Virus record (IMG/VR): IMGVR_UViG_3300028812_000228
Location: 1-25,300 of that record
Strand: one strand, 5' to 3'
Length of the DNA stretch: 25,300 nucleotides
Source of the DNA: a virus
Taxonomy: Duplodnaviria; Caudoviricetes
Shown here: piece by piece, positions 1 to 16,403 of the stretch
Numbering within the stretch: the first letter of the stretch is position 1
How the letters are laid out: the number at the start of each line of letters is the position of its first letter
The notes under the pieces: model-generated
Database searches by the model: none
Told to the model about the DNA's origin: nothing
What the model saw: only the letters and a program-made list of their open reading frames with translations
Translations under genes and position numbers: made by a program

Positions 1-57
1 GCATAGGGCGTCAGGCAACTCCTAAGTTTGCGATCTTGGGCCATGGGGGTGCCGCTG

Positions 58-396
58 ATGGCATCCAAGCAGCGCTATGCGGAGAACATCGCGAATGCCG
101 TGGCCATTCTGGACGCGCTCAAACTGGGTCGGGGTTGCGTCGACTGCGGTTATCGCCGGAGCCCGGCCGCACTGCACTTCGACCACATTGATCCATCCAC
201 GAAGCGATCGGACCTCGGTTGGTACGAGGACAGGTCGAAATTGCAGAACGCCACGCGGCTGCGGCGGTATCTAGATCACGTTGAGCGGTACTGCGTCGTT
301 CGGTGTGCCAACTGTCATGCCGAGCGGGGTGTGCGTGAGCGGCACTGGCTAATTCGGCGGGGCAGATTGCCCGATCGAGACCCGACCCTCTTCTGA
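58..396 (+). CDS. HNH endonuclease (terminase-adjacent)
   Basis: CVDC...LHFDH...CANCH zinc/HNH motifs, directly upstream of terS. ATG at 58 chosen because GGGGGT precedes it (the ORF track starts at TTG 28). Confidence 0.85.
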   Translation: MASKQRYAENIANAVAILDALKLGRGCVDCGYRRSPAALHFDHIDPSTKRSDLGWYEDRSKLQNATRLRRYLDHVERYCVVRCANCHAERGVRERHWLIRRGRLPDRDPTLF

Positions 397-406
397 GGAG
401 GTAGCG

Positions 407-820
407 GTGGGCACTCGCGGCCCCGTGCCAAAGCGCACCTCTCAGAGGCTCGGTCACGTCACGAAGGCGGAGAAGGCGGCAGCCACACCGGTCAAGGTGG
501 TTGGCGTCGTCGAGGTCCCGCCGGCGGACGAATCCTGGCATGATCTCGCCAAGGATTGGTACCAGTCACTGTCCGATTCGGCCCAGGCGCAGCTGATGGA
601 GCCCTCCGACTGGGCTGCGGCGCGCTTGGTCGCGGCTGAGATGACCCGGATGCTGGCTGAGCCGCCGAATGCGGCACTGCTGGGCAAGATCTGGTCGGCG
701 ATGGGCGAGCTGATGACGACCGAGGGTGCCCGCCGGCGGCTGAAGGTCGAGGTGGAGCGCCGACGGCTCGCCGCGGCGCCCGCGCCGGTGGCGAAGATGG
801 ATGACTACCGCGATCTCTGA
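407..820 (+). CDS. terS: Terminase small subunit
   Basis: GAGGAGG SD before GTG. N-terminus MGTRGPVPKR and internal WYQSL..S...EPSDW resemble actinophage small terminases. Overlaps terL. Confidence 0.85.
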   Translation: MGTRGPVPKRTSQRLGHVTKAEKAAATPVKVVGVVEVPPADESWHDLAKDWYQSLSDSAQAQLMEPSDWAAARLVAAEMTRMLAEPPNAALLGKIWSAMGELMTTEGARRRLKVEVERRRLAAAPAPVAKMDDYRDL

Positions 821-2582
821 CGCCGAGATTCTTCCCGGCTACTTCCTTGATCCCTGGTTCGGTACGCAGGCTTGGTGCACGCTGCCCTGGCCCGCCGAGC
901 AGGCGGCGAAGAACGAGCTCATCGCCGCGTCGATCGGGCCGCAGGTTATCGACTGGGCCGAGGGCCGCCGTGAGGACGAGGACGGCCCAGGGCTGATCCA
1001 CTACCTGACCGGCGAGCCGTGGCGGTTCACGCCCGGGCAGAAGCGGTTCCTGATCCTCTGGTACGCGTTCGACCCGCTCACGGGCCGGTGGGTGTACCGG
1101 TCGGGGCTGAAGCGGGGCGCGAAGGGCACCGGTAAGGACCCGTTCGCCGGCGCCTGGCTCGACGGGGAGCTGATCGGCCCGACGCACCTCGTGCACCGTG
1201 ACGGACGCTGGGTGGGCGAGCGCCACCGGCTGCCGTTGGTGCAGGTGGCCGCGAACTCGGAGGCTCAGGCCAAGGATGTGCTGCGCGTGGCGAATGCGCT
1301 GTTGCCGCGGCGCACGCGGGAGTACTTCGGCATCGACTGCGGCGAGACCCGCACGATTGTCGACGGCGGCGGCCGGCACGAGATCCTCACCGCGTCGGAG
1401 AAGACGTCCGAGGGCGACCCGGCGACGGCGATCGCACTGAACGAGTCGCATCACATGACTGAGTCGTCCGGCGGGCACCGTACGGCCGAGGTGGCGCGGC
1501 GCAACGTCGGCAAGAGCCCACGCGAACTGCAGGCCAGGCTGTGCGAGTTCACCAACGCCCACACGCCCGGGTCCGATTCGGTCGCTGAGCGGACGTATGA
1601 GGCGTGGCAGGCGCAGGTCTCCGGCCGGACCCGGCGGGTCGACATCCTGTACGACTCGATCGAGGCCCCACCGCAGCTGGACATCTACACCGAGGACGGC
1701 CTGGCGGAGTTCCTCCGCGCCGCCTACGCGGATGCGCCGTGGGCCGACCTGGAGCGGCTGGCCGGCGAGGTGCTCGACCCGCGCACGAGTGTGGCGGACA
1801 CGATCCGGTTCTACGGCAACGGCCTCGCCGCCCGAGAGGACGCCTGGGTCGACCCGCGACGGTTCGACGACCTCTCCCGGCCCGACCTGATCGTGACCGA
1901 CAACGACCCGATCGCCATGTTCCTGGACTGCTCCAAGTCGACTGACGCGACCGGGCTGGTCGGATGTCGGCTGGACGACGGGCATGTGTTCACGCTCGGC
2001 ATGTGGCAGCGGCCCCGCGGCGACCGCGGCAAAGGTTGGCTGGCGCCACGTAACGAGGTCGACGCTTCGGTCCGTTTGGCGTTCGACCGGTACCGGGTGA
2101 CGTGGTTCGGCGTGGATCCCTCGCCGGCGCGGGACGACTCGGACGAGTCGCTGTACTGGATGAACCTCGTCAACCAGTGGCACCGCGACTTCCGCGACAC
2201 CGTCCTCGTCTGGGCGACGCCGGGTGTACAGACCGGCAACGCGGTGCTGTTCGACATGCGGCTCTCGTCGCGTGGCGGCAACGACCGCAACCGGTTCTTC
2301 ACCGAGGCGGCCGAGCAGACCGCCAAGGACATCGACGAGGACGGAGCGTTGTCGCACGACGGCGACGCTGCCCTGCGACTGCACGTCCACAACGCGCGGG
2401 CGCGGAAGAACCAGTGGGGCACGAGCCTCGGCAAGGTGACCCGCGACTCTGACAAGCTCGTCGACCTCGCGGTGTGCATGGTCGGCGCCCGCATGGGGCG
2501 ACGGATCGTACTGAACAGCGGCGCTCTCGAGGCCGCAACGAAACCAACAGGAAAACGTCCGGGTCTAGTCGTGGGGTGGTGA
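801..2582 (+). CDS. terL: Terminase large subunit
   Basis: 593 aa. Walker A-like GAKGTGKD, Walker B-like LNESH, RNase H-like nuclease FLDCSKSTDAT and C-terminal KLVDLAV. Lies before the portal. Confidence 0.95.
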   Translation: MTTAISDAEILPGYFLDPWFGTQAWCTLPWPAEQAAKNELIAASIGPQVIDWAEGRREDEDGPGLIHYLTGEPWRFTPGQKRFLILWYAFDPLTGRWVYRSGLKRGAKGTGKDPFAGAWLDGELIGPTHLVHRDGRWVGERHRLPLVQVAANSEAQAKDVLRVANALLPRRTREYFGIDCGETRTIVDGGGRHEILTASEKTSEGDPATAIALNESHHMTESSGGHRTAEVARRNVGKSPRELQARLCEFTNAHTPGSDSVAERTYEAWQAQVSGRTRRVDILYDSIEAPPQLDIYTEDGLAEFLRAAYADAPWADLERLAGEVLDPRTSVADTIRFYGNGLAAREDAWVDPRRFDDLSRPDLIVTDNDPIAMFLDCSKSTDATGLVGCRLDDGHVFTLGMWQRPRGDRGKGWLAPRNEVDASVRLAFDRYRVTWFGVDPSPARDDSDESLYWMNLVNQWHRDFRDTVLVWATPGVQTGNAVLFDMRLSSRGGNDRNRFFTEAAEQTAKDIDEDGALSHDGDAALRLHVHNARARKNQWGTSLGKVTRDSDKLVDLAVCMVGARMGRRIVLNSGALEAATKPTGKRPGLVVGW

Positions 2583-2586
2583 CGCG

Positions 2587-4044
2587 ATGCCCCTCTCAGC
2601 TGCCCAGATCAGGGAGGCGCTCGGGGCACTGCGTGAGGCTCGCGCCAGCGAGCAGCCGCGGCTGAAGCGTATCGACGCCGTGCTAGCGGACAGCCTCTAC
2701 GGCCAGGCCGCCGGCGTGTATGTGCCGCGGCGCGCAACCCGCGAGTACCGGATGCTCGTCGAGCAGTCCCGGTTTAACGTGCTCGACCTCGTGGTCACGT
2801 CGGTGGCACAGAACCTGTTCGCCGACGGCTTTCGCCCTACCGGCCCGAATGGCCGGGCGCCGTCAGCCGAAAACGCGAAGATCTGGAATGCGGTGTGGCA
2901 GCCAAACAGGATGGATGCCCGCCAGTCGGCGCTGTACCGGTCTGCGATCGCCCACGGCGTGTCGTACGCCCTCGTACTGCCGGGTGACCCGGTCCCTGTG
3001 ATCACGCCGATGTCGGCGTGCCGGATGACCGCGTTGTACGTGGATCCGACAAACGACGAGTGGCCCGAGTTGGCCATGGAAGTCATGCACGAGCGTCGCT
3101 ACGGCCAAGAGAAGACGATTCTGGCCAGGATCTTTGACGACGAGGCGATCTATACGGTCAAAGCGAGCGACTCCCCCGACGTTGAGCCGCAGATCGTATC
3201 GGTCGAAGAGCATGACCTAACCGTGGTTCCGGTGGTGCGGTTCCGTGACCGCTACGACCTAGGTGTGCCGCGCGGCAAGGTCGAGCCCCTGATGTGGCTG
3301 CAGCAGCAGGTCAACCAGATCACCTTCAGCCTTGCTATGGCTCTGCAGTACGCGGCGTTTCGCCAGCGATACGTGACGGGCATGGAGACCCGGGTCGACG
3401 CGAACAACAACCCGCTGCCGCCGCTGTTCAACGTCGCCGTCGATCAGATCCTCGCCGGCACGTCGCCGGATATGAAGTTTGGCGAGTTCTCCCAGACCGA
3501 GGTCGGCGGCTACCTCGAGTCGCGGGACAAGGTACTGCTGCACATGGCGAGCGTGGCGCAGGTCCCACCACAGAGCATGGTGATCGGGTCGGGCATCTCC
3601 AACGTCCCAGCTGAGGCGCTCGAGCTGCTGGCAGCCGGGCACAAGCAGGACATCGCCGAGCACAAGACGAGCTTCGGTGAATCGATCGAGCAGATGATGC
3701 GCTTGTGCGGCAAGGCGATGGAAGACGAGAAAACCTGGGAGGACATGTCCGCTCAGGTGGTGTGGCGGGATACGAGCCTGCACTCGCCTGGCGCCATCGT
3801 CGACGCCCTTGGTAAGGGCGCGCAGATGCTGAACATTCCCCCGCAGGTCCTGTGGGAAGAGTGGCCCGACATGACCGACCAGAAGCTGGCCCGCTGGAAG
3901 GCGGCGGCCGAGGAGATGGACGGCATGCGCGACGCTGCCACCACCCCGCCACCGGAGCCCGAGGACCTGATCGAGGGGGCGCGTGGTGACGTCTCCGCTG
4001 GCTCAGCCCGGGCCGCCCGCACGCCGCAGCCCGCCCGCACGTAG
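2587..4044 (+). CDS. Portal protein (SPP1 gp6-like)
   Basis: 485 aa directly after terL. Motifs WQPNRMDARQ, VVPVVRF, QYAAFRQRYVTG, KFGEF and VVWRD are typical of actinophage portals. Confidence 0.92.
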   Translation: MPLSAAQIREALGALREARASEQPRLKRIDAVLADSLYGQAAGVYVPRRATREYRMLVEQSRFNVLDLVVTSVAQNLFADGFRPTGPNGRAPSAENAKIWNAVWQPNRMDARQSALYRSAIAHGVSYALVLPGDPVPVITPMSACRMTALYVDPTNDEWPELAMEVMHERRYGQEKTILARIFDDEAIYTVKASDSPDVEPQIVSVEEHDLTVVPVVRFRDRYDLGVPRGKVEPLMWLQQQVNQITFSLAMALQYAAFRQRYVTGMETRVDANNNPLPPLFNVAVDQILAGTSPDMKFGEFSQTEVGGYLESRDKVLLHMASVAQVPPQSMVIGSGISNVPAEALELLAAGHKQDIAEHKTSFGESIEQMMRLCGKAMEDEKTWEDMSAQVVWRDTSLHSPGAIVDALGKGAQMLNIPPQVLWEEWPDMTDQKLARWKAAAEEMDGMRDAATTPPPEPEDLIEGARGDVSAGSARAARTPQPART

Positions 4045-6934
4045 GTCACCGCCGGCACGCCGGTCGTGGCCCGCCGAGGGTGGGCCAGGCGGTACCGCGG
4101 ACCGGCTGTCGCGCCAGCACCAGAAGAACGTCGCCACCGTTGCCGGCGGTGTCGTGTCGATCGTCGCTTCGGCTGCGCTCGGCGCTGATCCGGCCGCGAT
4201 CGCAACCTGGTACTGGGGTGTTGTCGACGGCCTGATCTCCCGGATCCAAGCCGGCTACGCCATCAACCGCAACAGCGCCATGCAGTACCTGACCCGCCAT
4301 GGCGCCCTGCACGGCGCACAGGTGCAGCCCGTGCCCGGGTCGCTGGATGTGGCGCGGCTGCGCAAGCGGCTGGAGATCACCGGCCCGATCGGTTTCAAGT
4401 CCGCCATCGCCGGCGGGCAGGACACCGACGAGGCGCTGCGGCACATGGCGACGAATATGTCCGGTGTCGCCGACGAGGCGGTACGTAACGGCGACCGCGA
4501 CGTCATCACCCGCACTGCCACGTCAGGCCGTGGTGTGGTCGGTTGGCGCCGGCGGCTGTCCGGCCGGGCGTGCGGATTCTGCTCCATGCTCGCCTCTCGC
4601 GGTGCGGTGTATGTGAACCGTGCGTCGGCGACGGTGGCGAAGGACGGGATGGCCTTCCACCCGCACTGCCACTGCTGGGCTGAGCCGCTCTACCGGGAGC
4701 AGCGCGAGCCCGCCGAGGTGCAGCGGCTGCAGGCGCAGTGGCGGCGGATCACCGCCGGCCACAGCGGCAAGGACGCGCAGCGGGCTTGGATGCGGCACTG
4801 GGACCGCGCGACACCGCGAGCACGGCAGAGCATGGGCCTCCCTGCCCGGCCGGGCGGAACTGCCAGAAGCCCGGGTGCGCAGGCGCAGGTGCGGCCGATC
4901 CTGCTCGAGGCGAAGTCGCCCGAGGCCGTGTCGAGGGTGCTGGCGGCCGAGTATCGCCGCATCACCGGCCACGACGTTCGCGTGGACCTGCGCGGTTCGG
5001 TCGACACTGCTCGCGAGCACGCCGAGGGTGTGCTGCGGGTCATCGATCGGTACCCGGATATCCAGCTGGACGAGATCGCCACCGGCCGGCTGCTCATGTC
5101 GTACGCCGAGCTCGACGGCCGCCGGCTGATCTTCTCCGAGCGGTACTCCTCTGTGGAGCGCCGCCAGCGGTACCTATCCGAACTGGCCGGCGACTCCGAC
5201 GCGCACTGGCATCCGTTCGACAACCCGGCTGGCATGGCCGTGCACGAGATGGGCCACGCCCTGGACGTGCTGCGGTTGCAGCGCTCCGCCCGGGCACAGA
5301 TCGACGAGCTGGTGCAGTCGCATGGTGGCGTCGCGGGCGCGAAGCGCATCTCCGGTTACGCCGAGACGAACACCGATGAGTTCATCGCCGAAGCGTTCGC
5401 CGACGCGATGATGAACGGCTCCCGCGCCACTCCGCTGTCGCGGGCTGTGCTGGACGTGCTGGACGCCGAGTACGCCCGAGCGGTACCGGGATCCGGTGCT
5501 GGTGGGGTGCTGCGCGCGGTGCCGTCGCCGGAAATCCAACTTTTCCCGAGCCGCTGGGGTAAGGGCACTGTCGTCGTCGCGAGGTACGCCGACGGGACTA
5601 CGGCGCGGATCGCCGACGACATTCCGGATGCGGCGGTTCGGCGGCTCCAGGCTGATCTCGACGCGGCGCCGAACCGGGCCGCGAGGGTCAAGGAGATCCG
5701 GGCCGAGTTTGAGGCGTTCGCAGCGCGGCGGTTTGCCCGCAGCGAGGCGATCGACCGTTTGGCTCGGGAGAACGACATCCCGAACTGGGCGGCGCTGACC
5801 GGGGCGCAGCGGGAGTCGGCGCTGAAGCGTCGCGGGATCGCCGTGCCGGAACCGATTCCGGCACCGTTCACAGTCGCTCCCCGGAAGGCCGCGAAGAAGG
5901 CCGCTGCTCCGGTCGCCGATCGCTACCCGCTCGCTCCCGGCCACCGTGGCGCGACAGCGGCAGCCCGTCAGCGCCAGCGTGAAGAGGTGCTGACGCTCAC
6001 CCGAGACGCGCCTGGCGGCGCACGGAACTGGCAGGGCACTTCACGCGAGCATGCCGAGGCGCTGGAGAGTCTGGGTTACCTCCAGCGCACATCGAGCGGC
6101 ACTTTCACGCTGACAGACAGGGGCCGGGGCTACTTCGCCCAAACGCCGGCCGCACCCCCCGCTACCCCCGTTCCGTCCACTGTGGCTCGTGCCCGGATCA
6201 CCCGGGCGACGAAGTCCCGCACCGAGAAGGCAGCCGGCTACCCGGAACGCGCCCCGGTGCCGACGGCGAAAGCTCCGTGGACGGCAAGGTATCCGGACTA
6301 CGACCCGCCGGACTACACCGCGCGGGTGGTGCTCGACCAGGACCGCACCATCCGCCCCGGCGGCTGGGCCGATCCGCCCGACCCGCGTGCCGTGGGTAGG
6401 GAGTTCACGTCCTTTGAGGGCCCCGTGGTGCTCGACGAGCTGGGCCGGCCGATGAACCCGTTCGGCCGTACCGGCATCCAGGGCCGGGGGCTGTTGGGGA
6501 AGTGGGGCCAGAACCCGGCCGCCGATCCGATCATCACCCGCTACAACCCGGACACCGGGAAGTTGGAGATGGCCGTCATCCGCCGTGGCGACACGGACGA
6601 GTGGGCCATCCCCGGCGGCATGGTCGACGACGGCGAGCAGGCACTCTCGGCGGCGGCGCGGGAGTTCCTGGAGGAGACCGGCGCCGACCTGGACATGTCC
6701 GGTGCCCGGCAGGTGTACCGGGGCTACGTCGACGACCCGCGCAACACGGACAACGCGTGGATGGAAACGACGGTCATGCACCGTCACCTGTCGCCGGAAG
6801 AAGCGGCGCGGGTCCGGTTCGGCGACGCCGGGTGTCGACGGGTGAGATCCGCGCGGTGCGGTGGGAGCCGGTCACGCCCGAGTTCGTGGGCCGTATGTAC
6901 GCGTCGCACGGGACGTTCGTGCGTGAGGCGTTGA
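3983..6934 (+). CDS. MuF-like minor head protein fused to a HEXXH metallopeptidase and a NUDT9-like Nudix ADP-ribose pyrophosphatase (5' part of a frameshifted ~1520-aa gene)
   Basis: [20 protein letters not shown]...HPHCHC (MuF-type, 4544-4675). HEMGH (5243-5257) plus [17 protein letters not shown]. Nudix box [23 protein letters not shown] (6614-6682). GAGGGG SD before GTG 3983/3986. Codons after ~6832 are out of frame with the domain. Confidence 0.88.
   Translation: [983 protein letters not shown]
4013..4066 (+). repeat. 3 x 18-bp degenerate tandem repeat encoding PPARRS
   Basis: ccgcccgcacgccgcagc / ccgcccgcacgtaggtca / ccgccggcacgccggtcg. All differences are synonymous in the MuF frame. 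Confidence 0.8.
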
Positions 6935-8544
6935 AGGGCATGCCCCGCCGGCAGGCTGTTGCACCGGTGAAGGCAGCGAAGGCCGCTCCCGCCAAGAAGG
7001 CAGTGCCACGGAAAGCAGCAGCGGCATCGGATGTGCGGTCGCCGTTGCGCGCCTCGGATGAGACGGCGCTGGAGCGGGCGGCACCCGCGTCGTATGTCTC
7101 CCGCCGGACTCCCTCTATCGACATCAGCGACGAGGAGCGAGCCGCGCTTCGTCAGTACCGAAGCGTTAGCTCTGCGCCGGAGGAGATCCAAGCAGCCCTC
7201 CGTGCCGGCGACCTCCCTGAGGAGTACAGGGAGACGGTCGCCGCGATTGACGCCGTGATGGCCCGGTCCAGGCTCACCGAGGGTGTCGTCGCGGATCGCG
7301 GAATCTTCGACTTGGACCAGATTTTCCCCGGCCGATTCGGAGACGACCTCGTCGGTGCCGAGTGGATCGATCGTGGCTACCTGTCGACGACCATCAGTGA
7401 GTCCGAGGCCGCCAGCTTCGCGTTCGGCGGCCCGCGCCAAGCGGTTCTCCGTATACATGCACCGGCCGGAACGCCGGGCGTCCAACTGTCCAGTTCCAAG
7501 TACGAGGCTGAACTGCTGCTCGGCCGTGGCCTGCGGTTGCGAGTCATCGGTGATCGCGGACTGAACGCAAATGGCGCCCGCCTTCTCGACGTAGAGATCA
7601 TCCCCACCTCTCCCACCAAGGCCACCAAGGCAGCGAAGGCCGCTCCCGCCAAGAAGGCCACACCTCGCAAGGCTGCTACTCCTCCCGCACCTCAGCGCAT
7701 GTCTCTGGCTGCGCTGAGGACGGAACTGGACCGTGCCGGCGTCACCGTCCCACCCCGGACACCGAAAGCCACACTGGTGGACGAGGTGACCGCGCTACGT
7801 GGTGGGGCGACACCAGCACAGGTGACAGCGAGGCTGAACCCGCCAGAGCCGATGCGGATCGACCGGACACTCAGCCCAGCCGAAGTCCTGGAACAGGAAC
7901 GCCGAGCCCGCACGACCGCGCTCGCCGCACCGCCGGTGAAGCTGCAGGACCTCCCGCAGCGAGGCGCTGGCGGGGCGGCGCTGCGGTACTACCAGCGCCA
8001 CGGCGACGCGCACATGCTCGGCCTCATGCGCCGAGGCCGCGTCGGCGCCCCACCCGGCGCTCGCGGTGCACTGCCGAGCGTCGAAGAGGTGCAGGCTTCG
8101 ATCGACCAGATCCGCCGGCTCATGGACCAGTCGGTCCTGACCGAGGGCATCACGGTGTTCCGCGGCATGGCGTCCGTGTCCCGCCTCGGCCGTGGGGCGA
8201 GCGAGCCGGGCAGCCTCGTCGGCAGGACGTTCCGCGACAAGGGGTTCGTCTCCACCTCCGCTGATCGGCGCATCGCCATGGACTTCATGTCCGGCGAAGG
8301 CATGGCCAGCGACGGTGTGCTGATGGAGGTCCGCGTCCCAGCCGGCACGCGGGCCATCCAGGTCAGCAGCGACACCTTCACTGGCAAGGCACCCACAGCC
8401 ACGTCGGAGCGGGAGATCCTGCTACAGGACGGGCTGCGGTTCCGTGTCGTCTCCGACGAGATGGTCACCGACGTCTACCCTTGGCGCGGCGAAGCCACCA
8501 CAGGCGAGCCGTACCGCCACATCGTGGTCGAGGTGATCCCATGA
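6832..8544 (+). CDS. Nudix C-terminus plus two VIP2/C2-like (R-S-E) mono-ADP-ribosyltransferase domains (3' part of the frameshifted MuF fusion)
   Basis: ART1 (~7130-7605): ADRGI, GYLSTT, YEAELLL. ART2 (~7975-8541): VFRGM, GFVSTS, SEREILL. The first residues RAVRW...MYASHGTFV complete the NUDT9-like domain. The ORF-track start at 6502 is a shadow of the upstream frame. Confidence 0.85.
   Translation: MSTGEIRAVRWEPVTPEFVGRMYASHGTFVREALKGMPRRQAVAPVKAAKAAPAKKAVPRKAAAASDVRSPLRASDETALERAAPASYVSRRTPSIDISDEERAALRQYRSVSSAPEEIQAALRAGDLPEEYRETVAAIDAVMARSRLTEGVVADRGIFDLDQIFPGRFGDDLVGAEWIDRGYLSTTISESEAASFAFGGPRQAVLRIHAPAGTPGVQLSSSKYEAELLLGRGLRLRVIGDRGLNANGARLLDVEIIPTSPTKATKAAKAAPAKKATPRKAATPPAPQRMSLAALRTELDRAGVTVPPRTPKATLVDEVTALRGGATPAQVTARLNPPEPMRIDRTLSPAEVLEQERRARTTALAAPPVKLQDLPQRGAGGAALRYYQRHGDAHMLGLMRRGRVGAPPGARGALPSVEEVQASIDQIRRLMDQSVLTEGITVFRGMASVSRLGRGASEPGSLVGRTFRDKGFVSTSADRRIAMDFMSGEGMASDGVLMEVRVPAGTRAIQVSSDTFTGKAPTATSEREILLQDGLRFRVVSDEMVTDVYPWRGEATTGEPYRHIVVEVIP
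6970..7658 (+). repeat. Perfect 32-bp direct repeat (6970-7001 and 7627-7658) flanking ART1
   Basis: aaggcagcgaaggccgctcccgccaagaaggc occurs twice, 657 bp (219 codons) apart and in frame, encoding KAAKAAPAKKA. Confidence 0.92.
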
Positions 8545-8612
8545 CCGAGCCCGACCGTACGGACACGTTCGTCTGGGAAATCGAGGACGTGGAGTGGGAG
8601 GACGACGAATGA
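8541..8612 (+). CDS. 23-aa acidic mini-protein (MTEPDRTDTFVWEIEDVEWEDDE), candidate ART inhibitor
   Basis: ATGA overlap with the ART stop at its 5' end and ATGA overlap with the next start at its 3' end, filling the gap exactly. Below the ORF-track cutoff. Confidence 0.65.
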   Translation: MTEPDRTDTFVWEIEDVEWEDDE

Positions 8613-8824
8613 CCGTCGGACCCCGCAGCCAGTGCAACGCCTGCCGCCACCTGAAGCCGAAGGCGAACCTGGACGACCCGTTCACCTGTACCGCCTTCCC
8701 CGAAGGCATCCCTGACGCGGTGTACGGCAACGAACTCGACCACCGCCAGCCGATCGCCGGTGACGGTGGTGTGAGGTTTGCCGCGAAGCCGGGAGACCAG
8801 TTCCCGGCCTACGCGTTCGAATAG
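8609..8824 (+). CDS. Small Cys/His metal-binding protein (CxxC...C-x-AFPEGIP...DH), candidate immunity protein
   Basis: 71 aa from ATG 8609 with a GGGAGG SD. Motifs CNAC, CTAFPEGIP, DHRQP. Sits between the toxin-like gene and a terminator. Confidence 0.75.
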   Translation: MTVGPRSQCNACRHLKPKANLDDPFTCTAFPEGIPDAVYGNELDHRQPIAGDGGVRFAAKPGDQFPAYAFE

Positions 8825-8847
8825 ACGTCCAGCACGAGCTGGATCTG

Positions 8848-8874
8848 AGCCCGTCTCGATTAGGCGGGCTTTTT
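8848..8874 (+). terminator. Intrinsic terminator
   Basis: Stem agcccgtct / aggcgggct (9 bp, one G-U), loop cgatt, followed by a T-run. Confidence 0.75.
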
Positions 8875-8877
8875 CAT

Positions 8878-8966
8878 GCCCCGCAGCCGTAACGGCGGGG
8901 GCTTAACCGCGCCTCGCAGCCGCAATGGCGGAGGCCCGATCCCGCAGCCGCAACGGCGGGGATGGG
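8878..8966 (+). promoter_or_regulatory. Three tandem conserved hairpins in the scaffold 5' leader (putative cis-regulatory RNA)
   Basis: Core GCA-GCCG-YAA-YGGC-G occurs three times (8878, 8911, 8939), each closed by a different complementary 5-bp stem: gcccc/ggggc, gcctc/gaggc, atccc/gggat. Confidence 0.75.
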
Positions 8967-8975
8967 AAGTCACGA

Positions 8976-9947
8976 ATGTCTGACGAAGAAGAGTACGACG
9001 AGGCCGACGACACCAGCGAGTGGCAGGCCGAGGCCGGTAAGTGGAAGCAGAAGGCCAGCGAAGCCGAGCGGGCTGCCGCCGAGAACGCTGGCGCTGCCGC
9101 ACGTTTGGCCGAGCTCGAGAAGGCCACAAGCGGCCAGGCGGACGAGCACGCCGAGGCGTTGAAGGCGGCCAAGGCCGAGGCCGACGAGGCAGCCAGGGCC
9201 GCCGAGGAGCGCGGTGACAAGACGGCCGCCGAATGGCGGGCCGAGGCGGAGAAGTGGAAGCAGCTGTCTCAGAAGAACGAGCAGCTGGCCAAGCAGAACC
9301 TCGCCGCAGCGCGGCGACTCGAGAAGCTCGATGCCGAAGGCGCCACGGCCACCGAGAAGGCGGCCAAGGTCAAAGCGGCGGCGGAAGCCCAGACGGCGGA
9401 GACCAAGGCCGACCTTGAAGCGAAGGCCACCCAGGCAGAGTTGAAGGCGGCCCGGCTCGCGGTCGCCCAGGAACTCGGCGTCCCCACTGCACTGATCGAT
9501 CTGCTTTCCGGTGCGTCGAAGCGGGAGATCGAGCAGTCGGCGGACAAGCTGCTCCGCGAACTGGCCGCCAACAAGCAGCCCGAGCCGGAGACGGTCCAGG
9601 CGGCCGAAGTGCAGCAGAAAGCCAAGGAGGACGGCGAGCTCGCAGAGGCCCGCAAGCTTCTGGTCGAGGCGGAGATCAAAGCTCTACGCCTCGAGGTCGC
9701 TACCGACAAGAAACTCCCATCGGGCCTGGCTGAACTGCTGAACGCCCGCACCCGCGAAGAGCTGGAGCGTCAGGCCGACGCGCTTGTCACCGCGATCGGT
9801 GGAGTCAAGTCCGCTGAAAGGCCAACTCGCGGGCGCATGCCCACTGAGCGGTTGCGTTCCGGCGCGCTGCCTGAGGGCGCCGGCGACTCTGACATCGATC
9901 CCGGCAAGCTCGCCGATTCGATCCTGGGCCGGAATCGCGGCTATTAG
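8976..9947 (+). CDS. Capsid scaffolding protein (internally duplicated)
   Basis: 323 aa from ATG 8976. Acidic N-terminus, WxAEAxKWKQ coiled coil and RLxVA...LP..L.ELL....EEL...AD.L helical motif. Immediately upstream of the major capsid gene. Confidence 0.85.
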   Translation: MSDEEEYDEADDTSEWQAEAGKWKQKASEAERAAAENAGAAARLAELEKATSGQADEHAEALKAAKAEADEAARAAEERGDKTAAEWRAEAEKWKQLSQKNEQLAKQNLAAARRLEKLDAEGATATEKAAKVKAAAEAQTAETKADLEAKATQAELKAARLAVAQELGVPTALIDLLSGASKREIEQSADKLLRELAANKQPEPETVQAAEVQQKAKEDGELAEARKLLVEAEIKALRLEVATDKKLPSGLAELLNARTREELERQADALVTAIGGVKSAERPTRGRMPTERLRSGALPEGAGDSDIDPGKLADSILGRNRGY

Positions 9948-9950
9948 ACA

Positions 9951-9974
9951 ACCACGGCAAGAAACCGCCGTGGT
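9951..9974 (+). promoter_or_regulatory. Stem-loop between scaffold and capsid genes
   Basis: Perfect 8-bp stem accacggc / gccgtggt with an 8-nt loop and no U-tract. Confidence 0.5.
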
Positions 9975-10001
9975 CAACCAAGAAAGAAGGGTTAACCGAC
10001 C

Positions 10002-10868
10002 ATGGCGTTCTTGACCGCCAAGGGGATCGCCCGGACGGGCATCGCCCTACTCACCCGCACCCTGGTGCTTCCGATGACTGTCACCCGCCTTCCGGGTGAG
10101 GACTTCGCCGGTAGCAACGGGGACACCATCACCGTTCGCGTGCCGCAGCCCGGCACCGCCCGGACCCAGTCGTCCGCCGGTACGCAGATCGACTACGACA
10201 CGATCTCGGAGACTCCGGTCGACGTGACGCTGGAGCACCTGTACCACGCCACCAAGGTCACCGACGAGTCGATGTCGTTGGAGCTCGAGAACTTCGCTGA
10301 GCAGGTCACCCGGATCCAGGCCGCAGCGGTCGCGACCCGGGCCGAGGACCAGCTTGCCGGGGTGATGAACACCCTTGCGATGGACCTGTCGATTGCGTCC
10401 GGCGGCACCGACGTCGAGAGCATCGTGCTCGAGGCCCGCGAGATGCTCGGCGAGGCTGACGTGCCCAGCGGCGATCGCTACCTTGCCGTATCGCCCTCGG
10501 TGGCGACGTTCCTGCTGAAGCTGGACAAGCTCAGCCGAGTCGACGCGTCTGGCACGTCCACGGGGCTGCGCGACGCCATCATCGGGAAGTTCTACGGCTT
10601 CATCTGCGTGGAGTCGAACGGCCTCACGGCCGGCACTGCGGTGGCTTACCACTCGTCAGGGTTCGTGTTCGCGAACCGGACCCCGGTGACGCCGCGAGGC
10701 GCGGCTGACTCGGCGACCGCCACCGAGGGCGGCGTCGGCATGCGGCAGATCTTCCAGTACGCGCCGGACTTCCTGTCGGACGCTTCGGTCGTCTCGACCT
10801 TCGCCGGTGCCGCGCTCGTCGATGCTGACCGCGTCGTGAAGATCACCACAGGTGGCGCGTCGAGCTGA
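10002..10868 (+). CDS. Major capsid protein (HK97 fold, P22-coat-like family)
   Basis: 288 aa after the scaffold. Motifs GDTITVRVP, VPSGDRYLAVSP and LRDAIIGKFYGF. Ends in TTGGASS. Confidence 0.9.
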   Translation: MAFLTAKGIARTGIALLTRTLVLPMTVTRLPGEDFAGSNGDTITVRVPQPGTARTQSSAGTQIDYDTISETPVDVTLEHLYHATKVTDESMSLELENFAEQVTRIQAAAVATRAEDQLAGVMNTLAMDLSIASGGTDVESIVLEAREMLGEADVPSGDRYLAVSPSVATFLLKLDKLSRVDASGTSTGLRDAIIGKFYGFICVESNGLTAGTAVAYHSSGFVFANRTPVTPRGAADSATATEGGVGMRQIFQYAPDFLSDASVVSTFAGAALVDADRVVKITTGGASS

Positions 10869-11273: not shown

Positions 11274-12338
11274 GTGCGCGTCCTGGCGATGACGCACGCC
11301 TACCTGCCAGGCCATTGCGCGGGCGCGGAGACGATGCTGCACGGCATGCTCCGCGCCCTCGTGGTCGCCGGTCATCAGGTGGACATGACCCTGTCCGTGC
11401 AGACCGGGGAGCCGTACGAGATCGACGGCATCCAGGTCCACCCGCGGCAGGGCAAGAAGGTGTCGCTCGACCTGCTCATGGCCGCGGACGTAGTAGTCGC
11501 CCATCTGGCGAACACGCCGCCGGCGGCGGCGCTGGGGAAGTGGAACGGCAAGCCGGTCGTCATCATCAGCCACAACAACTTCCGCGCCAACTACAAGGCG
11601 ACCCTGGCACCGCAGGGCCACGTCTCGCTGATGGTGGTCAACTCGGAGTGGATGGCCGACGACCTACGCGAGTGGATCGCCCGGCAGAAGCCGCGGCGGA
11701 TCGGGCCCGTGCCGCAGATCATCATTCACCGACCCGTTGTGAATCCGGCCGAGCACGCCACGGCCCCGGGTGACCGGGTGACGCTGGTCAACATCAGTAA
11801 GGACTTCGACGCCCCGGACGGCCACGTGACGGGCAAGGGCGGCGAGTTGTTCCGGCTCCTCGCCGAGCAGATGCCGGGCACGCCATTCCTCGGGGTGACC
11901 GGAAGCTATGGGCCACAGCAGGACATGACGGGTCTGCCCAATGCGGAGGTCCTGCCGCACCTACCGAACAGCCAGATGCGCGACCGGGTGTGGGCGCGCA
12001 CGCGGGTGCTGCTGATGCCCAGCTCGTACGAGTCGTGGGGGCGTGTCGCGTCCGAGGCGCTGTGTTCCGGAATCCCGGTGATCGCCAACCCCACCCCCGG
12101 CCTGATCGAGAACCTCGGCGACGCGGGCATCTTCATCGACCGCAACGACACGGACGCCTGGGCCGCGGCGATCCGCGACCTCGCCGACCCGGCCGTGTAC
12201 GAGGCGGCCCGCGCCCGTGCGCTGGCCCGCGCTACGGAGCAGCAGCGTCTACACCTCGAGGACGACGAGAGGTGGTGCGCCAGTGTCGAAGCCCTCGGTG
12301 GCCGTCGTCATTCCATGGCGGACCTCGCGCACGCATAA
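11274..12338 (+). CDS. Glycosyltransferase, GT-B fold (GT4-like)
   Basis: MRVLA...H.Y.P...GAE N-terminus and LLMPSSYESWGRVASEALCSGIPVIA (E-x7-E). Confidence 0.92.
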   Translation: MRVLAMTHAYLPGHCAGAETMLHGMLRALVVAGHQVDMTLSVQTGEPYEIDGIQVHPRQGKKVSLDLLMAADVVVAHLANTPPAAALGKWNGKPVVIISHNNFRANYKATLAPQGHVSLMVVNSEWMADDLREWIARQKPRRIGPVPQIIIHRPVVNPAEHATAPGDRVTLVNISKDFDAPDGHVTGKGGELFRLLAEQMPGTPFLGVTGSYGPQQDMTGLPNAEVLPHLPNSQMRDRVWARTRVLLMPSSYESWGRVASEALCSGIPVIANPTPGLIENLGDAGIFIDRNDTDAWAAAIRDLADPAVYEAARARALARATEQQRLHLEDDERWCASVEALGGRRHSMADLAHA

Positions 12339-12969
12339 ATCGCGCCGGCTCGAGCTGTGCCGCACCGCCCTGCGTGAAGCCCTGCCCGACGCCGAGATTT
12401 CGGCCTTCGACTCCGGACATCAGCCGTTCAACCGCGCCGCATCTCGAAATGCGGGCGTGGCGAACAGCCACGGCGGCGCGGACATCTTGGTCGTCTGCGA
12501 CGGGGACGCGATCGCCGAACCGGAGCCGCTGCGCGACGCGATCGCCGCAGCTGGTGACGGGAAGCTGCACCTGCCGTACACCGCCGCCGTGCTGTTGTCG
12601 CAGCCCGGCACCGACGCTGTTCACGCCGGCACCGACCCGGCCCAGGCCGACGTCTGGCACGCCAACCCGAACAGCGTCGGCGGGTGCGTGGTCATCACGT
12701 ACGAGTCATGGCGTGCAGTGGGCGGCTGGGACGAGCGATTCACCAATTGGGGCTTCGAGGACACCGCCTTCTGGGCCGCCATGGACACCATGTTCGGGAT
12801 GGTCCGCCACGACGGCGCTCTGTTTGATCTGTGGCACATCGACAAGCGCGGCATCGGCTCGCCGCAATGGCAGGCGGGCATGGCCCTTTGCGACCGTTAC
12901 ACCGATGCGCGAGGTGACCAGCAGGCCATGCGGGCACTGATCGAGGAGCGGCTATGCGCGTCGGCGTGA
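12283..12969 (+). CDS. Glycosyltransferase, GT-A fold (GT2 / GT7C-like)
   Basis: VAVVIPWR, FNRAASRNAG, DGD (DxD) and VGGWDERFTNWGFED. GTG 12283 has a GAGGTG SD and overlaps the upstream gene by 56 bp. Confidence 0.88.
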   Translation: MSKPSVAVVIPWRTSRTHKSRRLELCRTALREALPDAEISAFDSGHQPFNRAASRNAGVANSHGGADILVVCDGDAIAEPEPLRDAIAAAGDGKLHLPYTAAVLLSQPGTDAVHAGTDPAQADVWHANPNSVGGCVVITYESWRAVGGWDERFTNWGFEDTAFWAAMDTMFGMVRHDGALFDLWHIDKRGIGSPQWQAGMALCDRYTDARGDQQAMRALIEERLCASA

Positions 12970-13973
12970 CCGGTGGAGCGGGGTTCATCGGCGGCCACGT
13001 CATCGACGTGCTCTACGAGCGCGGACACGAGGCGGTCGTCTTCGATCACCGCGGCCGGCCCGGCCCACGTGTCGCTGACGGGTTCGTGCCTGAGCGGATG
13101 CTCGGCGATACCCGCGACGAAGTCTCGGTGACCGAACTCGCCGCCCACGTCGACGGGATCATCCACCTCGCCTCCGTCCTCGGCACCCAAGAGACCGTGT
13201 TCAACCCTCGGCCCGCCGTGATGACGAACGTCATCTCCGGCATGAACGTCTTCGAGGCCGGCGTCCAGTACGACCTGCCGGTGGTCAACATCGCGGTCGG
13301 GAACGCCGGCTTCTCCAACCCCTACTCGGCCAGTAAGACGTGCGTCGAAACGCTCGGGCACATGTACGTCCGCGACCGCGGGCTGCGGCTCAATCAGGTC
13401 CGCCTGGTGAATGCGTACGGTCCGCGCCAGTCGGTCGCCGCACCGTACGGCACATCGAAGGTGCGCAAGATCACGCCCGCGTTTGTGTGCCGCGCCCTGA
13501 CCGGCGCCCCGGTCGAGGTCTACGGCGACGGCAAGCAGGTCTCGGACATGGTGTGGGTTCGCGACGGCGCGCTCGCCCTGGTGCTCGCGCTCGAGTCCGC
13601 GGCTGCCGGCACGGTGGTACCGCGGGTGATGGAATGCGGCCCGCTCGACCACACTGCAGTCGTCGAGGTTGCCGAGCTCGTGATCGCAGAGGCGGAGAAG
13701 CTGACCGGCCGGCGGTCGGAGATCGTGCACCTGCCGATGCGGCCGGGTGAAACACCCGGCGCGTATGTCACGTGCGACCCGGAAACACTGGGCCCGATCG
13801 GCATGGACCCGGCCGACCTGAAGCCACTCGCCGAGGGCATCGCCGAGACGGTGCTGTGGTACGCGCGGAACTGGCTGCCACGGTGGCGCGCCGAGACGCC
13901 ACAACCCTGGTGCGTCGAGCAGCGCCGCGGCGACTGCGGCTGGTGCAGCCCGGCATGCAGGGACTTGGCGTGA
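12954..13973 (+). CDS. NAD-dependent nucleotide-sugar epimerase/dehydratase (extended SDR)
   Basis: TGGAGFIG, IHLAS, YSASK (YxxxK), NAYGPRQ and VYGDGKQVSDMVWVRD. Confidence 0.93.
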   Translation: MRVGVTGGAGFIGGHVIDVLYERGHEAVVFDHRGRPGPRVADGFVPERMLGDTRDEVSVTELAAHVDGIIHLASVLGTQETVFNPRPAVMTNVISGMNVFEAGVQYDLPVVNIAVGNAGFSNPYSASKTCVETLGHMYVRDRGLRLNQVRLVNAYGPRQSVAAPYGTSKVRKITPAFVCRALTGAPVEVYGDGKQVSDMVWVRDGALALVLALESAAAGTVVPRVMECGPLDHTAVVEVAELVIAEAEKLTGRRSEIVHLPMRPGETPGAYVTCDPETLGPIGMDPADLKPLAEGIAETVLWYARNWLPRWRAETPQPWCVEQRRGDCGWCSPACRDLA

Positions 13974-15010
13974 GCATCGCGATCGTCACCGGCGCCGGCG
14001 GGCTGATCGGCGCCGAGACCGTACGCCACTTCGCGGGCCTCGGCCTTGATGTGGTCGGTGTCGACAACGACATGCGCGGCCAGCTGTTCGGCCCGGACGG
14101 GTCGGTCGCTGGCAGCGTCGCCGTGCTGCGGGGCCTCGACCGGTACGTGCACTATGACGCGGACGTCCGCGACCACGGGCGCCTATCGTCGATCCTCGCC
14201 ATGACCGGCCGTGACACGTCGCTTGTGGTGCACTGCGCGGCCCAGCCGGCGCACGACTCGCCGGACCCGCTGGTCGACTGGGACGTGAACGCCACCGGCA
14301 CCGTCAACGTCCTCGACGCCGTCCGCCGACACGCACCCGACGCCGTGGTGGTCGTGCTGTCGACGATCAAGGTCTACGGCCAGCAGCCCAACGAGCTCCA
14401 CCTGCTCGATAACCGCACCCGCTACGAGGTGGTCACCCGGACGGCCTACTACGACGGCATCGACGAGACCATGTCGGTCGACGGGTCGGCCCGGTCTGTG
14501 TTCGGCGCGTCCAAACTGGCGGCCGATCTGATGGCGCAGGAGTACGGGCAGACCCTCGGTCTGCGCACGGTCGTGCTCCGGCCCGGCTGCCTTACCGGCT
14601 CCGCCCACGCCGCCGTCGAGGCGCACGGGTTCCTCGGGCACCTCGTCCGCTGTGTAGCCACCGGCCGGCCGTACCGGATACAGGGCAACGGCAAACAGGT
14701 CCGCGACCAGGTCCACGCCGCCGACGTCGTGTCCGCGATCGAGCAGATTTGGCGGGATCCGCCGGAGGCGGGCGAGGTGTTCAACCTGGGCGGCGGACGC
14801 GGTACCGAACTGTCAGTGCTCGAGGCCGTCGCCCTTGCCGAGGAAGTGACCGGCCTAGCCGCGAAGGTTGAGCACGTTGAACCACGCCACGGCGATCACC
14901 GCTGGTGGGTCACCGACACCACCAAGCTGCAGCGCCGGTACCCGGCTTGGTCGCCGACCCGGACAGTACGGCAGCTGGTCGAGGAGATCGCGGACCGGTG
15001 GCTCCCATGA
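13970..15010 (+). CDS. NAD-dependent epimerase resembling the CDP-paratose 2-epimerase (RfbE-like) subfamily
   Basis: GTGA overlap start. Motifs TGAGGLIG, DNDMR..LFG, HCAAQPAHD, STIKVYG, FGASKLAADLMAQEYG, GCLTG, HGFL and GKQVRD. Confidence 0.88.
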   Translation: MSIAIVTGAGGLIGAETVRHFAGLGLDVVGVDNDMRGQLFGPDGSVAGSVAVLRGLDRYVHYDADVRDHGRLSSILAMTGRDTSLVVHCAAQPAHDSPDPLVDWDVNATGTVNVLDAVRRHAPDAVVVVLSTIKVYGQQPNELHLLDNRTRYEVVTRTAYYDGIDETMSVDGSARSVFGASKLAADLMAQEYGQTLGLRTVVLRPGCLTGSAHAAVEAHGFLGHLVRCVATGRPYRIQGNGKQVRDQVHAADVVSAIEQIWRDPPEAGEVFNLGGGRGTELSVLEAVALAEEVTGLAAKVEHVEPRHGDHRWWVTDTTKLQRRYPAWSPTRTVRQLVEEIADRWLP

Positions 15011-15699
15011 GCCCGACCTGGACGATCCTCGTCCCTACGCTTGGCCAGCGCCGCGAACTGTTGCAGCGGATGCTTGCCGGGCTCATGCCGCAGGTCGAGC
15101 AGGCGGCCGGCGCGGTCCGGGTGCTGGCCTACTGGAACAACGGTGAGAACAGCCTCGCCGACACCAAGCAGGCACTGCTCGACGCCACCGAAACGGATTA
15201 CCTGTCCTTCGTGGATGACGACGACACCGTGTCCGATGACTACGTCTCCGCGATCCTCGATGCGCTGCGACGCGGCCCGGACTATGTGGGTCTGAAGTTG
15301 CAGGTGTACGAGAACGGCCGGCCGTTCGTCTTGTCCCATCACAGCCTCAGCCACGGCGGGTGGATCAACGAGGGCGCGCCTTATTACCGGCGTGACATCA
15401 CCTGCGCAAACCCGATGCGTACCGACATCGCCCAGACGGCGAGGTTCGACGTCGTTTCCCGCGGCCAGGCCGAAGACGTCCCATGGGTCACCCAGTTGCG
15501 CGACGGCGGCCTCCTCCGCACCGAGGTGTTCATCGACCGTGTGCTCTACCACTACTGGTGGGTTCCGTCCCAGTCGGCGTGGATGGCGCCGAAGAGCCAG
15601 ATCCGTCGACTCGACTCCAACGGTCAGCCGTGGCAGCCACTGGCCGTCGACTCACCCCACTTCGCTTGGCACCCGGCCAGCACCTTGACGGAGGAGTAG
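15007..15699 (+). CDS. Glycosyltransferase, GT-A fold (GT2-like)
   Basis: ATGA overlap start. Motifs WTILVPT, YLSFVDDDD (DxD), AEDVPW and VLYHY. Confidence 0.85.
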   Translation: MSPTWTILVPTLGQRRELLQRMLAGLMPQVEQAAGAVRVLAYWNNGENSLADTKQALLDATETDYLSFVDDDDTVSDDYVSAILDALRRGPDYVGLKLQVYENGRPFVLSHHSLSHGGWINEGAPYYRRDITCANPMRTDIAQTARFDVVSRGQAEDVPWVTQLRDGGLLRTEVFIDRVLYHYWWVPSQSAWMAPKSQIRRLDSNGQPWQPLAVDSPHFAWHPASTLTEE

Positions 15700-15701
15700 C
15701 T

Positions 15702-16403
15702 GTGGCAGACCTGCTCGTCATCGTGCCGGCCCGTACCCGGACCTGGAACATCGAGCGGATGCTGCAGGCGTGGACGGACACCGCCGCGTGGGGCGTCGCC
15801 GACCTACGGGTGGATGTCGACGCCGACGATCCGGCGCTGCCCGGCTATCAGGCGATCGTCATGCCGCCCGGCGCCCGGCTGGTGGTGCACGACTCGTGGA
15901 TGCCGTGCATGCACAAACTCGAGGTCGCCGCGGCGCAGGAGGTCGGTAACTACTTCGCCCTCGGGTTCATGGGCGACGATCACGTGCCGCGCACTGTCGG
16001 CTGGGCGCAACGTTGGGTCGAGGTGCTGCACGATATGCGGACCGGCATCGTCTATGGCGACGACGCTCTGCGCGGGGAGGAACTGCCCACGCAGTGGGCG
16101 ACGACGTCAGACATCGTGCGGGCGCTCGGCCGGCTGTGCCCCTCGCCGGTGGAGCACCTGTGGTCCGACACCGCGGTCTACGACCTGGGCAAGGCCGCAG
16201 ACTGCATGCGCTACCTGCCCGACACGGTGATCGAGCACGCCCACTACATCAACGGCAAGGCGCCCCGGGATGCCCAGTACGAGCGGGTCAATGGGCGCGA
16301 CCAGTGGGACCGGGACGAGGCCGCCTACCGGGCGTGGCAGCGCGACCAGCTGCCCGCCGACGCTGCGGTCGTGAGGGCACTAAGGGAGGCCCACGGTGAC
16401 TGA
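15702..16403 (+). CDS. Putative glycosyltransferase, GT-A fold
   Basis: GGAGGAG SD before GTG 15702. Motifs LLVIVPAR, FMGDDHVPRT.GW, IVYGDD, HLWSD and IEHAH. Confidence 0.78.
   Translation: MADLLVIVPARTRTWNIERMLQAWTDTAAWGVADLRVDVDADDPALPGYQAIVMPPGARLVVHDSWMPCMHKLEVAAAQEVGNYFALGFMGDDHVPRTVGWAQRWVEVLHDMRTGIVYGDDALRGEELPTQWATTSDIVRALGRLCPSPVEHLWSDTAVYDLGKAADCMRYLPDTVIEHAHYINGKAPRDAQYERVNGRDQWDRDEAAYRAWQRDQLPADAAVVRALREAHGD

Follow-up and report, generated by a model that had tools for sequence, protein, structure and literature searches.

The window (the whole 25,300-nt stretch of viral DNA analysed here) is a siphovirus structural operon. Pfam and PHROG searches identify HNH, terminase subunits, portal, a VG15 gene, scaffold and major capsid; the same operon continues with a glycosylation cassette, adaptors and tail genes. 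The VG15 gene is placed in the head module, with the portal on one side and the scaffold on the other (Table 1). Two overlapping plus-strand frames cover it, 3983-6934 and 6502-8544, and are read here as one gene. The terminase and the VG15 domain resemble those of actinobacterial phages, so we take the host phylum to be actinobacterial. A GTDB scan with orfB, a small gene downstream, gave a single short match, probably by chance, and so names no host. Six soil metagenome runs contain half or more of the window's DNA words, and no RNA run holding window sequence is listed. The ORFs scanned in this partial contig include no integrase, and a MerR/excisionase-like gene upstream in L015 is the sole hint of a temperate lifestyle. 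An Rfam scan yielded zero matches. L-numbers denote loci, and P-numbers proteins, retrieved by sequence searches of viral collections.

Table 1. Features of the multi-enzyme head gene and its neighbours (window coordinates)
Feature	Position	Strand	Basis or remark
Portal gene, upstream neighbour	2587..4044	+	PF05133, E 8.4e-30; phrog_104
VG15/MuF-like multi-enzyme gene	3983..8544	+	~1520 aa intact; split here, one base missing near 6830
VG15 (MuF-like) head-targeting domain, CxxC...HxxCxC	4235..4825	+	PF25310; alignment
Zincin metallopeptidase, lethal-factor-like catalytic core; HEMGH at 5243-5257, downstream Tyr and Glu	4904..5482	+	Profile, alignment
Small conserved module, ~65 aa, HTH-like by eye	5954..6148	+	Common to L011, L108, P0213, P0262
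NUDT9-type ADP-ribose pyrophosphatase	6209..6942	+	Crosses the break
G run, lacking one base present in three other contigs	6829..6833	+	Contig comparison
ART1, R-S-E clade, R...STT...ExE	7120..7608	+	PF03496; weak Vip2 match, E 0.005
Small helical module, Rho-N/HeH-like by eye, within Lys/Ala/Pro linkers	7693..7827	+	Without Pfam confirmation for this copy
ART2, C-terminal, R...STS...ExE	7957..8544	+	PF03496; motif alignment
orfA, 23-aa acidic peptide, predicted ART2 partner	8541..8612	+	ATGA overlap
orfB, 71-aa Cys3His protein, predicted metallopeptidase partner/inhibitor	8609..8824	+	Co-occurrence, sequence tracking
Terminator-like hairpin with U tail	8847..8874	+	-16.2 kcal/mol, z -2.4
Scaffold and major capsid genes, downstream neighbours	8925..10868	+	Pfam, PHROG matches

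Read through, the gene encodes a VG15/MuF-like domain, a lethal-factor-like HEXXH peptidase, a NUDT9-type Nudix, ART1 and ART2, in that order, with catalytic motifs intact in all four enzyme domains. The initial annotation had proposed a MuF domain, HEXXH peptidase, NUDT9-like Nudix and two ARTs; motifs and profiles bear out the enzymes, whereas the N-terminal domain matches PF25310 (VG15) and not PF04233. PF04233 proteins bear the same cargo, and among the 399 cultured actinophage records that match the VG15 domain several are annotated MuF-like. Pfam finds VG15 (E 5.5e-19) and NUDIX on the first frame and two PF03496 stretches (E 8.5e-23) on the second. The H, E, H and E of the peptidase are invariant across 31 relatives; its profile matches the lethal factor core at E 8e-4 and clusters ATLF/M90-like. 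Both ARTs have the R, S-T-S/T and ExE motifs of Alt/VIP2 R-S-E enzymes, and ART2 has no PDB match at E 0.1. The ExE motif signifies arginine specificity in ARTs. A 50-nt linker repeat occurs at 6970-7019 and again at 7627-7676.

The Nudix domain belongs with human NUDT9 (1q33, E 8.8e-37); its best PDB matches are NUDT9 and TRPM2, and its relatives match PF25969 and PF00293. It shares with human NUDT9 and TRPM2 NUDT9-H an N-terminal cap region, an intact Nudix box (~6614-6685) and a DPRNTDNAW loop, and differs in being a module inside a phage head protein. NCBIfam models for RppH score 20-22 bits against cut-offs of 116-118, so the domain is not of the single open RppH/NUDT16 type. NCBIfam scores far below cut-off likewise argue against NudE or NadM affinity, in a comparison that did not include T4 NudE itself.

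To judge from its sequence, the gene falls into a known class, that of MuF toxins and polyvalent proteins. MuF polymorphic toxins (Jamet 2017, PMC5576092; Zhang 2012, PMC3482391) share its head-module site, a variable C-terminal enzyme and a small coupled downstream ORF that changes with the cargo, and their N-terminal domain has a MuF-like counterpart here in VG15. PMC5576092 reports a small downstream ORF for 89% of MuF toxin genes and lists ART and ATLF-type peptidase among the cargo. The window gene differs in its four enzymes per chain, in its VG15 domain and in its NUDT9 cargo, Nudix being absent from that paper's text and six supplement files. Bxa (PMC11699363) is described as a MuF-ART specific for arginine that kills bacteria, is blocked by an adjacent small protein and comes with two immunity genes. 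Compared with Bxa and the MuF toxins, the window locus has no ARH eraser gene, and its partner genes are orfA (23 aa) and the Cys3His gene orfB. Polyvalent proteins (Iyer 2017, PMC5512222) likewise shuffle ART, kinase, GNAT and Rho-N-type modules around an MPTase hub in a virion-gene context, and differ in that the accessible text describes neither NUDT9 nor cognate partner genes.

Closer precedents exist for single domains. In Iyer 2022 (PMC9503650), fusions of Nudix or ART domains to MuF or portal proteins are described, with injection and the countering of ADPR signals as their proposed role. Most phage Nudix domains there fall in the T4 NudE and NadM clades, in contrast to the NUDT9/TRPM2-type window domain; its text as accessible does not name NUDT9, though an architecture of this kind may appear in its Fig. 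5a. Actinophage VG15-VIP2 fusions (Arthrobacter phage Adolin gp4; Microbacterium EH/EJ phages, PMC7302621) share the N-terminal family and ART type but have a single ART. In 50,697 cultured-phage records, neither the peptidase, NUDT9 nor orfB has a match at tblastn sensitivity. The initial annotation knew of no description of the architecture as a whole. MuF-ART, MuF-Nudix and MuF-peptidase are each published; the part of that claim that stands concerns the NUDT9 type and the partner-gene pattern, for which the literature search found no precedent.

The two tiny coupled ORFs noted earlier behind the gene are present. Cysteines C9, C12 and C27 and histidine H45 of orfB are invariant, and its structure model has a pLDDT of 89.7. 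It has no entry in Pfam, PHROGs or NCBIfam; its profile gave chance-level matches only against PDB sequences, and a viral fold search with the model returned only uncharacterised proteins, none at E 0.001. With 203 viral matches, it points to a widespread, unannotated Cys3His family.

orfB accompanies the peptidase. When loci were retrieved with the peptidase, 22 of the 28 scored peptidase genes (4 truncated ones were left unscored) had orfB no more than 900 nt downstream, namely 10/10 with an ART and 12/18 without. Loci found with VG15 (5 not scored) have orfB behind 4 of 5 genes with a peptidase, none of the 3 that carry an ART and no peptidase, and none of the 55 that carry neither, which makes 0/58 lacking the peptidase. 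The search with orfB itself yielded 80 loci, 77 of them with upstream DNA; not de-duplicated and found with a query built from peptidase neighbours, they have an HEXXH gene upstream in 67/77, while 7 lie behind ART-ending genes without HEXXH, 2 behind an unidentified domain and 1 is truncated. Across 15 loci, orfB identity tracks the peptidase (partial r 0.66, Mantel p 0.0002) and not VG15 (0.10, p 0.16); the orfB-peptidase correlation falls from 0.72 to 0.29 once close pairs are removed. Three loci with two peptidases (L115, L118, L154) have two orfB copies. Immunity to ART2 was rejected as the chief role of orfB: its identity stays at 93-96% in L011 and L017, whose C-terminal domains differ.

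The N-terminus of orfB varies with what lies upstream. Behind peptidases, 5-11 residues precede the first Cys (35 cases, mostly 8, usually with an M-T/S start); behind ART ends the stretch is 15-25 residues in 8 of 9 cases (p 1e-5 against the peptidase cases). Other metallopeptidase inhibitors cap the active-site zinc. By analogy, the short fixed N-terminus suggests that orfB may cap the zinc of its peptidase. orfA, for its part, looks by eye like the N-terminal arm that orfB-family members have behind ART-ending genes, for example in L188 and L192.

Other terminal domains have partners too. A partner family of its own lies behind 8 of 9 kinase ends, 4/4 DUF3626-like ends and 3/4 GNAT ends, and ART ends are followed by unrelated short acidic peptides or armed orfB. 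In L122 a kinase partner, a GNAT partner and orfB stand in mirror order of the domains. Internal domains often have no partner gene, among them the internal ARTs of L011, L017, L121 and L153; the window gene has two ExE ARTs and one shared peptide, orfA. To go by these genes and the literature searched, where neither was found, the domain-by-domain partner pattern and the Cys3His partner family look new. The pattern amounts to a rule that assigns immunity genes to the cargo domains of polyvalent proteins, and would make otherwise toxic domains clonable.

Some family members have different neighbours. In L195 (5068-6984) and L212 (1305-2585), orfB-family genes follow a C-terminal domain unmatched by profiles, whose motif resembles that of an H-Y-type ART. 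Five loci (L117, L129, L130, L131, L189) hold stand-alone peptidase and orfB pairs directly upstream of the portal, some multicopy, without MuF. Behind orfB in the window, the terminator reported earlier is upheld by its folding energy, though a consensus terminator scan does not include it. Between this hairpin and the scaffold gene lie three tandem hairpin-like repeats (8876-8970, ~30 nt spacing), whose joint fold is no better than shuffles (z -0.7) and which have no Rfam match.

On balance we favour reading this gene as a MuF-type head protein whose four enzymes are likely injected and likely act independently, with orfA and orfB as predicted inhibitors in the producing cell. The head-module multi-enzyme effector of the initial annotation gains support from gene position, intact motifs and the precedent of MuF toxins, Bxa and polyvalent proteins. 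Packaging, injection, catalysis, targets and binding are what we infer from sequence, motifs, position, shuffling and co-occurrence. The protein would be expressed late, and a few copies would be anchored in the head by VG15. In the producer, orfA and orfB would serve as stoichiometric inhibitors of the terminal ART and the peptidase, respectively, by analogy with Bxa/Bsi (PMC11699363), and would be left behind at packaging. The cargo would be freed into the next actinobacterial host along with the DNA, possibly after self-cleavage of the kind proposed for MPTases (PMC5512222). In that host, the prediction is that both ARTs attach ADP-ribose to arginines of host proteins, that NUDT9 hydrolyses free ADP-ribose, or linear messengers of that type, to AMP plus ribose phosphate, and that the peptidase cleaves host proteins or the polyprotein itself. 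Genes of this sort would lengthen as cassettes, each an enzyme with its partner, are inserted in frame after the peptidase, pushing orfB downstream.

A less probable but serious alternative is that the cargo acts without injection, through late expression, lysis, vesicles, tail-less particles or virion assembly; in the assembly variant the peptidase would be a maturation enzyme and the ART would act on head proteins. An injected chain of 165 kDa must pass a siphovirus tail, and this size counts against injection. Cultured VG15 homologues are often annotated as capsid maturation proteases, and Iyer 2022 (PMC9503650) offers a packaging-step role as an alternative. According to PMC11699363, lysogens release Bxa and its site of action is host epithelium, so MuF-ARTs need not act by injection. 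Yet 55 of the 63 scored VG15 genes lack both peptidase and ART, which makes the cargo dispensable for assembly, and a set of partner genes that switches together with the cargo accords with a toxicity held off in the producer.

The NUDT9 domain of the head protein has relatives in similar settings. In a tree of 318 NUDT9-like domains thinned to 197 (FastTree, midpoint root), a single 13-tip clade (support 0.94) takes in 10 of the 11 large phage-type fusions and leaves out P0048; P0023, whose genomic context is unknown, is counted among the 11. The Nudix box is intact in 11/11. Carriers in the clade are VG15, PF04233 MuF, portal, and genes of 2000-6000 aa between portal/MuF and the major head genes. 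No mention of NUDT9 in phage head proteins was found in the mainly open-access texts searched, and by sequence this phage clade of NUDT9 head cargo looks new. Three loci (L096 4448-17401, L097 2-19357, L098 7115-13552) have giant genes of 4300 to >6400 aa with NUDT9 and kinase, one with ARTs, flanked in these larger phages by head protease-like genes on one side and major head genes on the other.

It is possible, though we advance it tentatively, that enzymes of the clade travel in heads and, once injected, destroy linear ADPR-type messengers on entry, before phage genes are expressed, and that polyvalent head proteins are accompanied by nested domain-specific inhibitors, among them the Cys3His family as zinc-finger inhibitors of lethal-factor-like peptidases. 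Known phage counters to NAD/ADPR immunity (sponges, NAD rebuilding, RyDEP) are mostly expressed after entry. A virion-borne NUDT9, if real, would arrive as an eraser already made, and the clade is a source of small testable domains. The turnover of NUDT9 is ~10 per second. Related minor head proteins, SPP1 gp7 and 80alpha gp44, are reported at 1-2 copies per virion; by analogy, with that turnover, 1-2 injected copies could deplete a few micromolar every minute, which would suffice for a messenger and not for bulk NAD breakdown. His-ADPR is a linear ADPR-type messenger. Linear messengers such as free ADPR and His-ADPR are the likelier substrates because cyclic 2'/3'-cADPR is described as very stable (PMC13232231) and phages with NARP1 are reported to reuse ADPR.

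The initial annotation had joined the ARTs and the Nudix in one pathway that might yield phosphoribosylated proteins. The co-occurrence search that it proposed lends such coupling no support. We pooled complete VG15/MuF proteins of at least 480 aa from all searches, 103 in number and 72 after removal of 90% duplicates, which carry MPTase (56), ART (37), kinase (16), GNAT (12) and NUDT9 (6). ART is present in 4/6 proteins with NUDT9 and in 33/66 without (Fisher p 0.67, n=72), the remaining cells being 2 with NUDT9 and no ART and 33 with neither; with 6 NUDT9 cases in a pool that grew from searches with this protein, the test is weak. Three proteins, P0048, P0058 and P0128 (a portal fusion), bear NUDT9 and no ART. 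Where both occur on one chain, in 6 of the 11 phage-type fusions (P0001, P0127, P0007, P0130, P0023, L003), NUDT9 stands before, between or after the ARTs, in an order that differs among P0001, P0127, P0007/P0130 and P0023. None of the closest VG15-plus-peptidase relatives in a representative search has NUDT9; they bear ARTs, kinases, GNATs, DUF3626 or papain-like domains. In L011 the peptidase is 76% and orfB 96% identical to the window's, and NUDT9 is absent. As far as sequences tell, cargo domains are freely shuffled among VG15/MuF proteins.

These counts bear on two proposals that tie NUDT9 to the ARTs. One, which we regard as unlikely, makes NUDT9 a clean-up enzyme that removes ADP-ribose arising from side NAD hydrolysis by the ARTs and so protects the producer or the incoming phage. 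It suits a pyrophosphatase of free ADPR (PMC9404506) that adjoins ART1 in the window gene and has an ART for company in 4/6 NUDT9-bearing MuF/VG15 proteins, but 33 ART-bearing proteins do without NUDT9 and at least three complete NUDT9 fusions do without ART. The other, decidedly improbable, is a coupled writer and trimmer: the ARTs would modify host arginines and NUDT9 would trim the products to phosphoribose, which host erasers could not remove. The six chains that hold both activities invite this idea, and reviews list a weak NUDT9 activity on protein-linked PAR that tethering could raise. Against it stand the absence of enrichment, the ART-less fusions, the variable domain order, and a domain that is not of the RppH/NUDT16 type.

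The biochemical literature points the same way. Free ADP-ribose is given as the substrate of NUDT9, with protein-linked PAR cut weakly (PMC9404506, PMC6414514). In PMC9404506, NUDT9 is listed for PAR alone, far below NUDT16, the sole Nudix said to digest mono-ADP-ribosylated protein. According to PMC4680915, whose tests as reported did not extend to NUDT9, bacterial ADPRases left protein-linked ADPR uncut, and the active trimmers were open single-domain decappers used in large excess. Clearance of free ADP-ribose or ADPR-type signals, which the initial annotation also named, is a better option for the NUDT9 domain than phosphoribosylation.

NUDT9 domains also turn up in other company. Three proteins of 2700-4000 aa (P0234, P0239, P0297) fuse NUDT9-like domains to NAD synthase, NAPRTase and isochorismatase, a whole NAD salvage set. 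AT-rich giant-virus contigs (L006-L009, L099-L105) have stand-alone NUDT9 genes, two copies in L007.

The four-domain protein presupposes that the two frames form one gene. The GC3 signal changes frame near 6830. L001 agrees with window positions 1-8744 without a mismatch, apart from one additional base at the break; L015 and L016 are intact in the same way, and the gene is in frame in a sister strain (L002, L017, L035). The frame-corrected length of about 1520 aa in the initial annotation holds, at 1520 aa when counted from 3983. The protein collection contains three full-length members of 1463 aa, called from 4154, beside this contig's two fragments. A programmed frameshift or a genuine split was rejected because otherwise identical contigs carry the intact gene, though these may derive from one sampling campaign; the break is likely an assembly error or a rare allele. 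One read contig spanned the site, in frame and of sister-strain origin; from the window's own strain no read contig spans it in either form. That the window allele is genuinely split or decaying, so that this phage does not make the four-domain protein, is highly improbable given those intact copies, even though the break cuts off the NUDT9 C-terminus and zero read contigs of the window's strain bridge it.

The start codon is uncertain. Upstream, translation could begin in frame only at 3983 or 3986, and either start adds an extension of ~35 residues missing in close relatives. The extension is a Pro/Arg repeat (PPARRS three times) without counterpart there, and the gene start overlaps the portal end by 62 nt (window 3983-4090). 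Database gene calls, beginning at 4154, truncate a conserved helix.

Two further regions of the window stand out. Between the major capsid and head-tail adaptor genes, 11274-16403 holds a glycosylation cassette of a GT4, a GT2/galactosyltransferase, two NAD-dependent epimerases, a second GT2 and a methyltransferase-like gene, which likely serves to glycosylate the virion and to make the sugar nucleotides for it; in the equivalent position L013 carries another cassette. In the tail region, a large ORF (20871-24518) has a phosphodiesterase-like PHROG match (phrog_24476).
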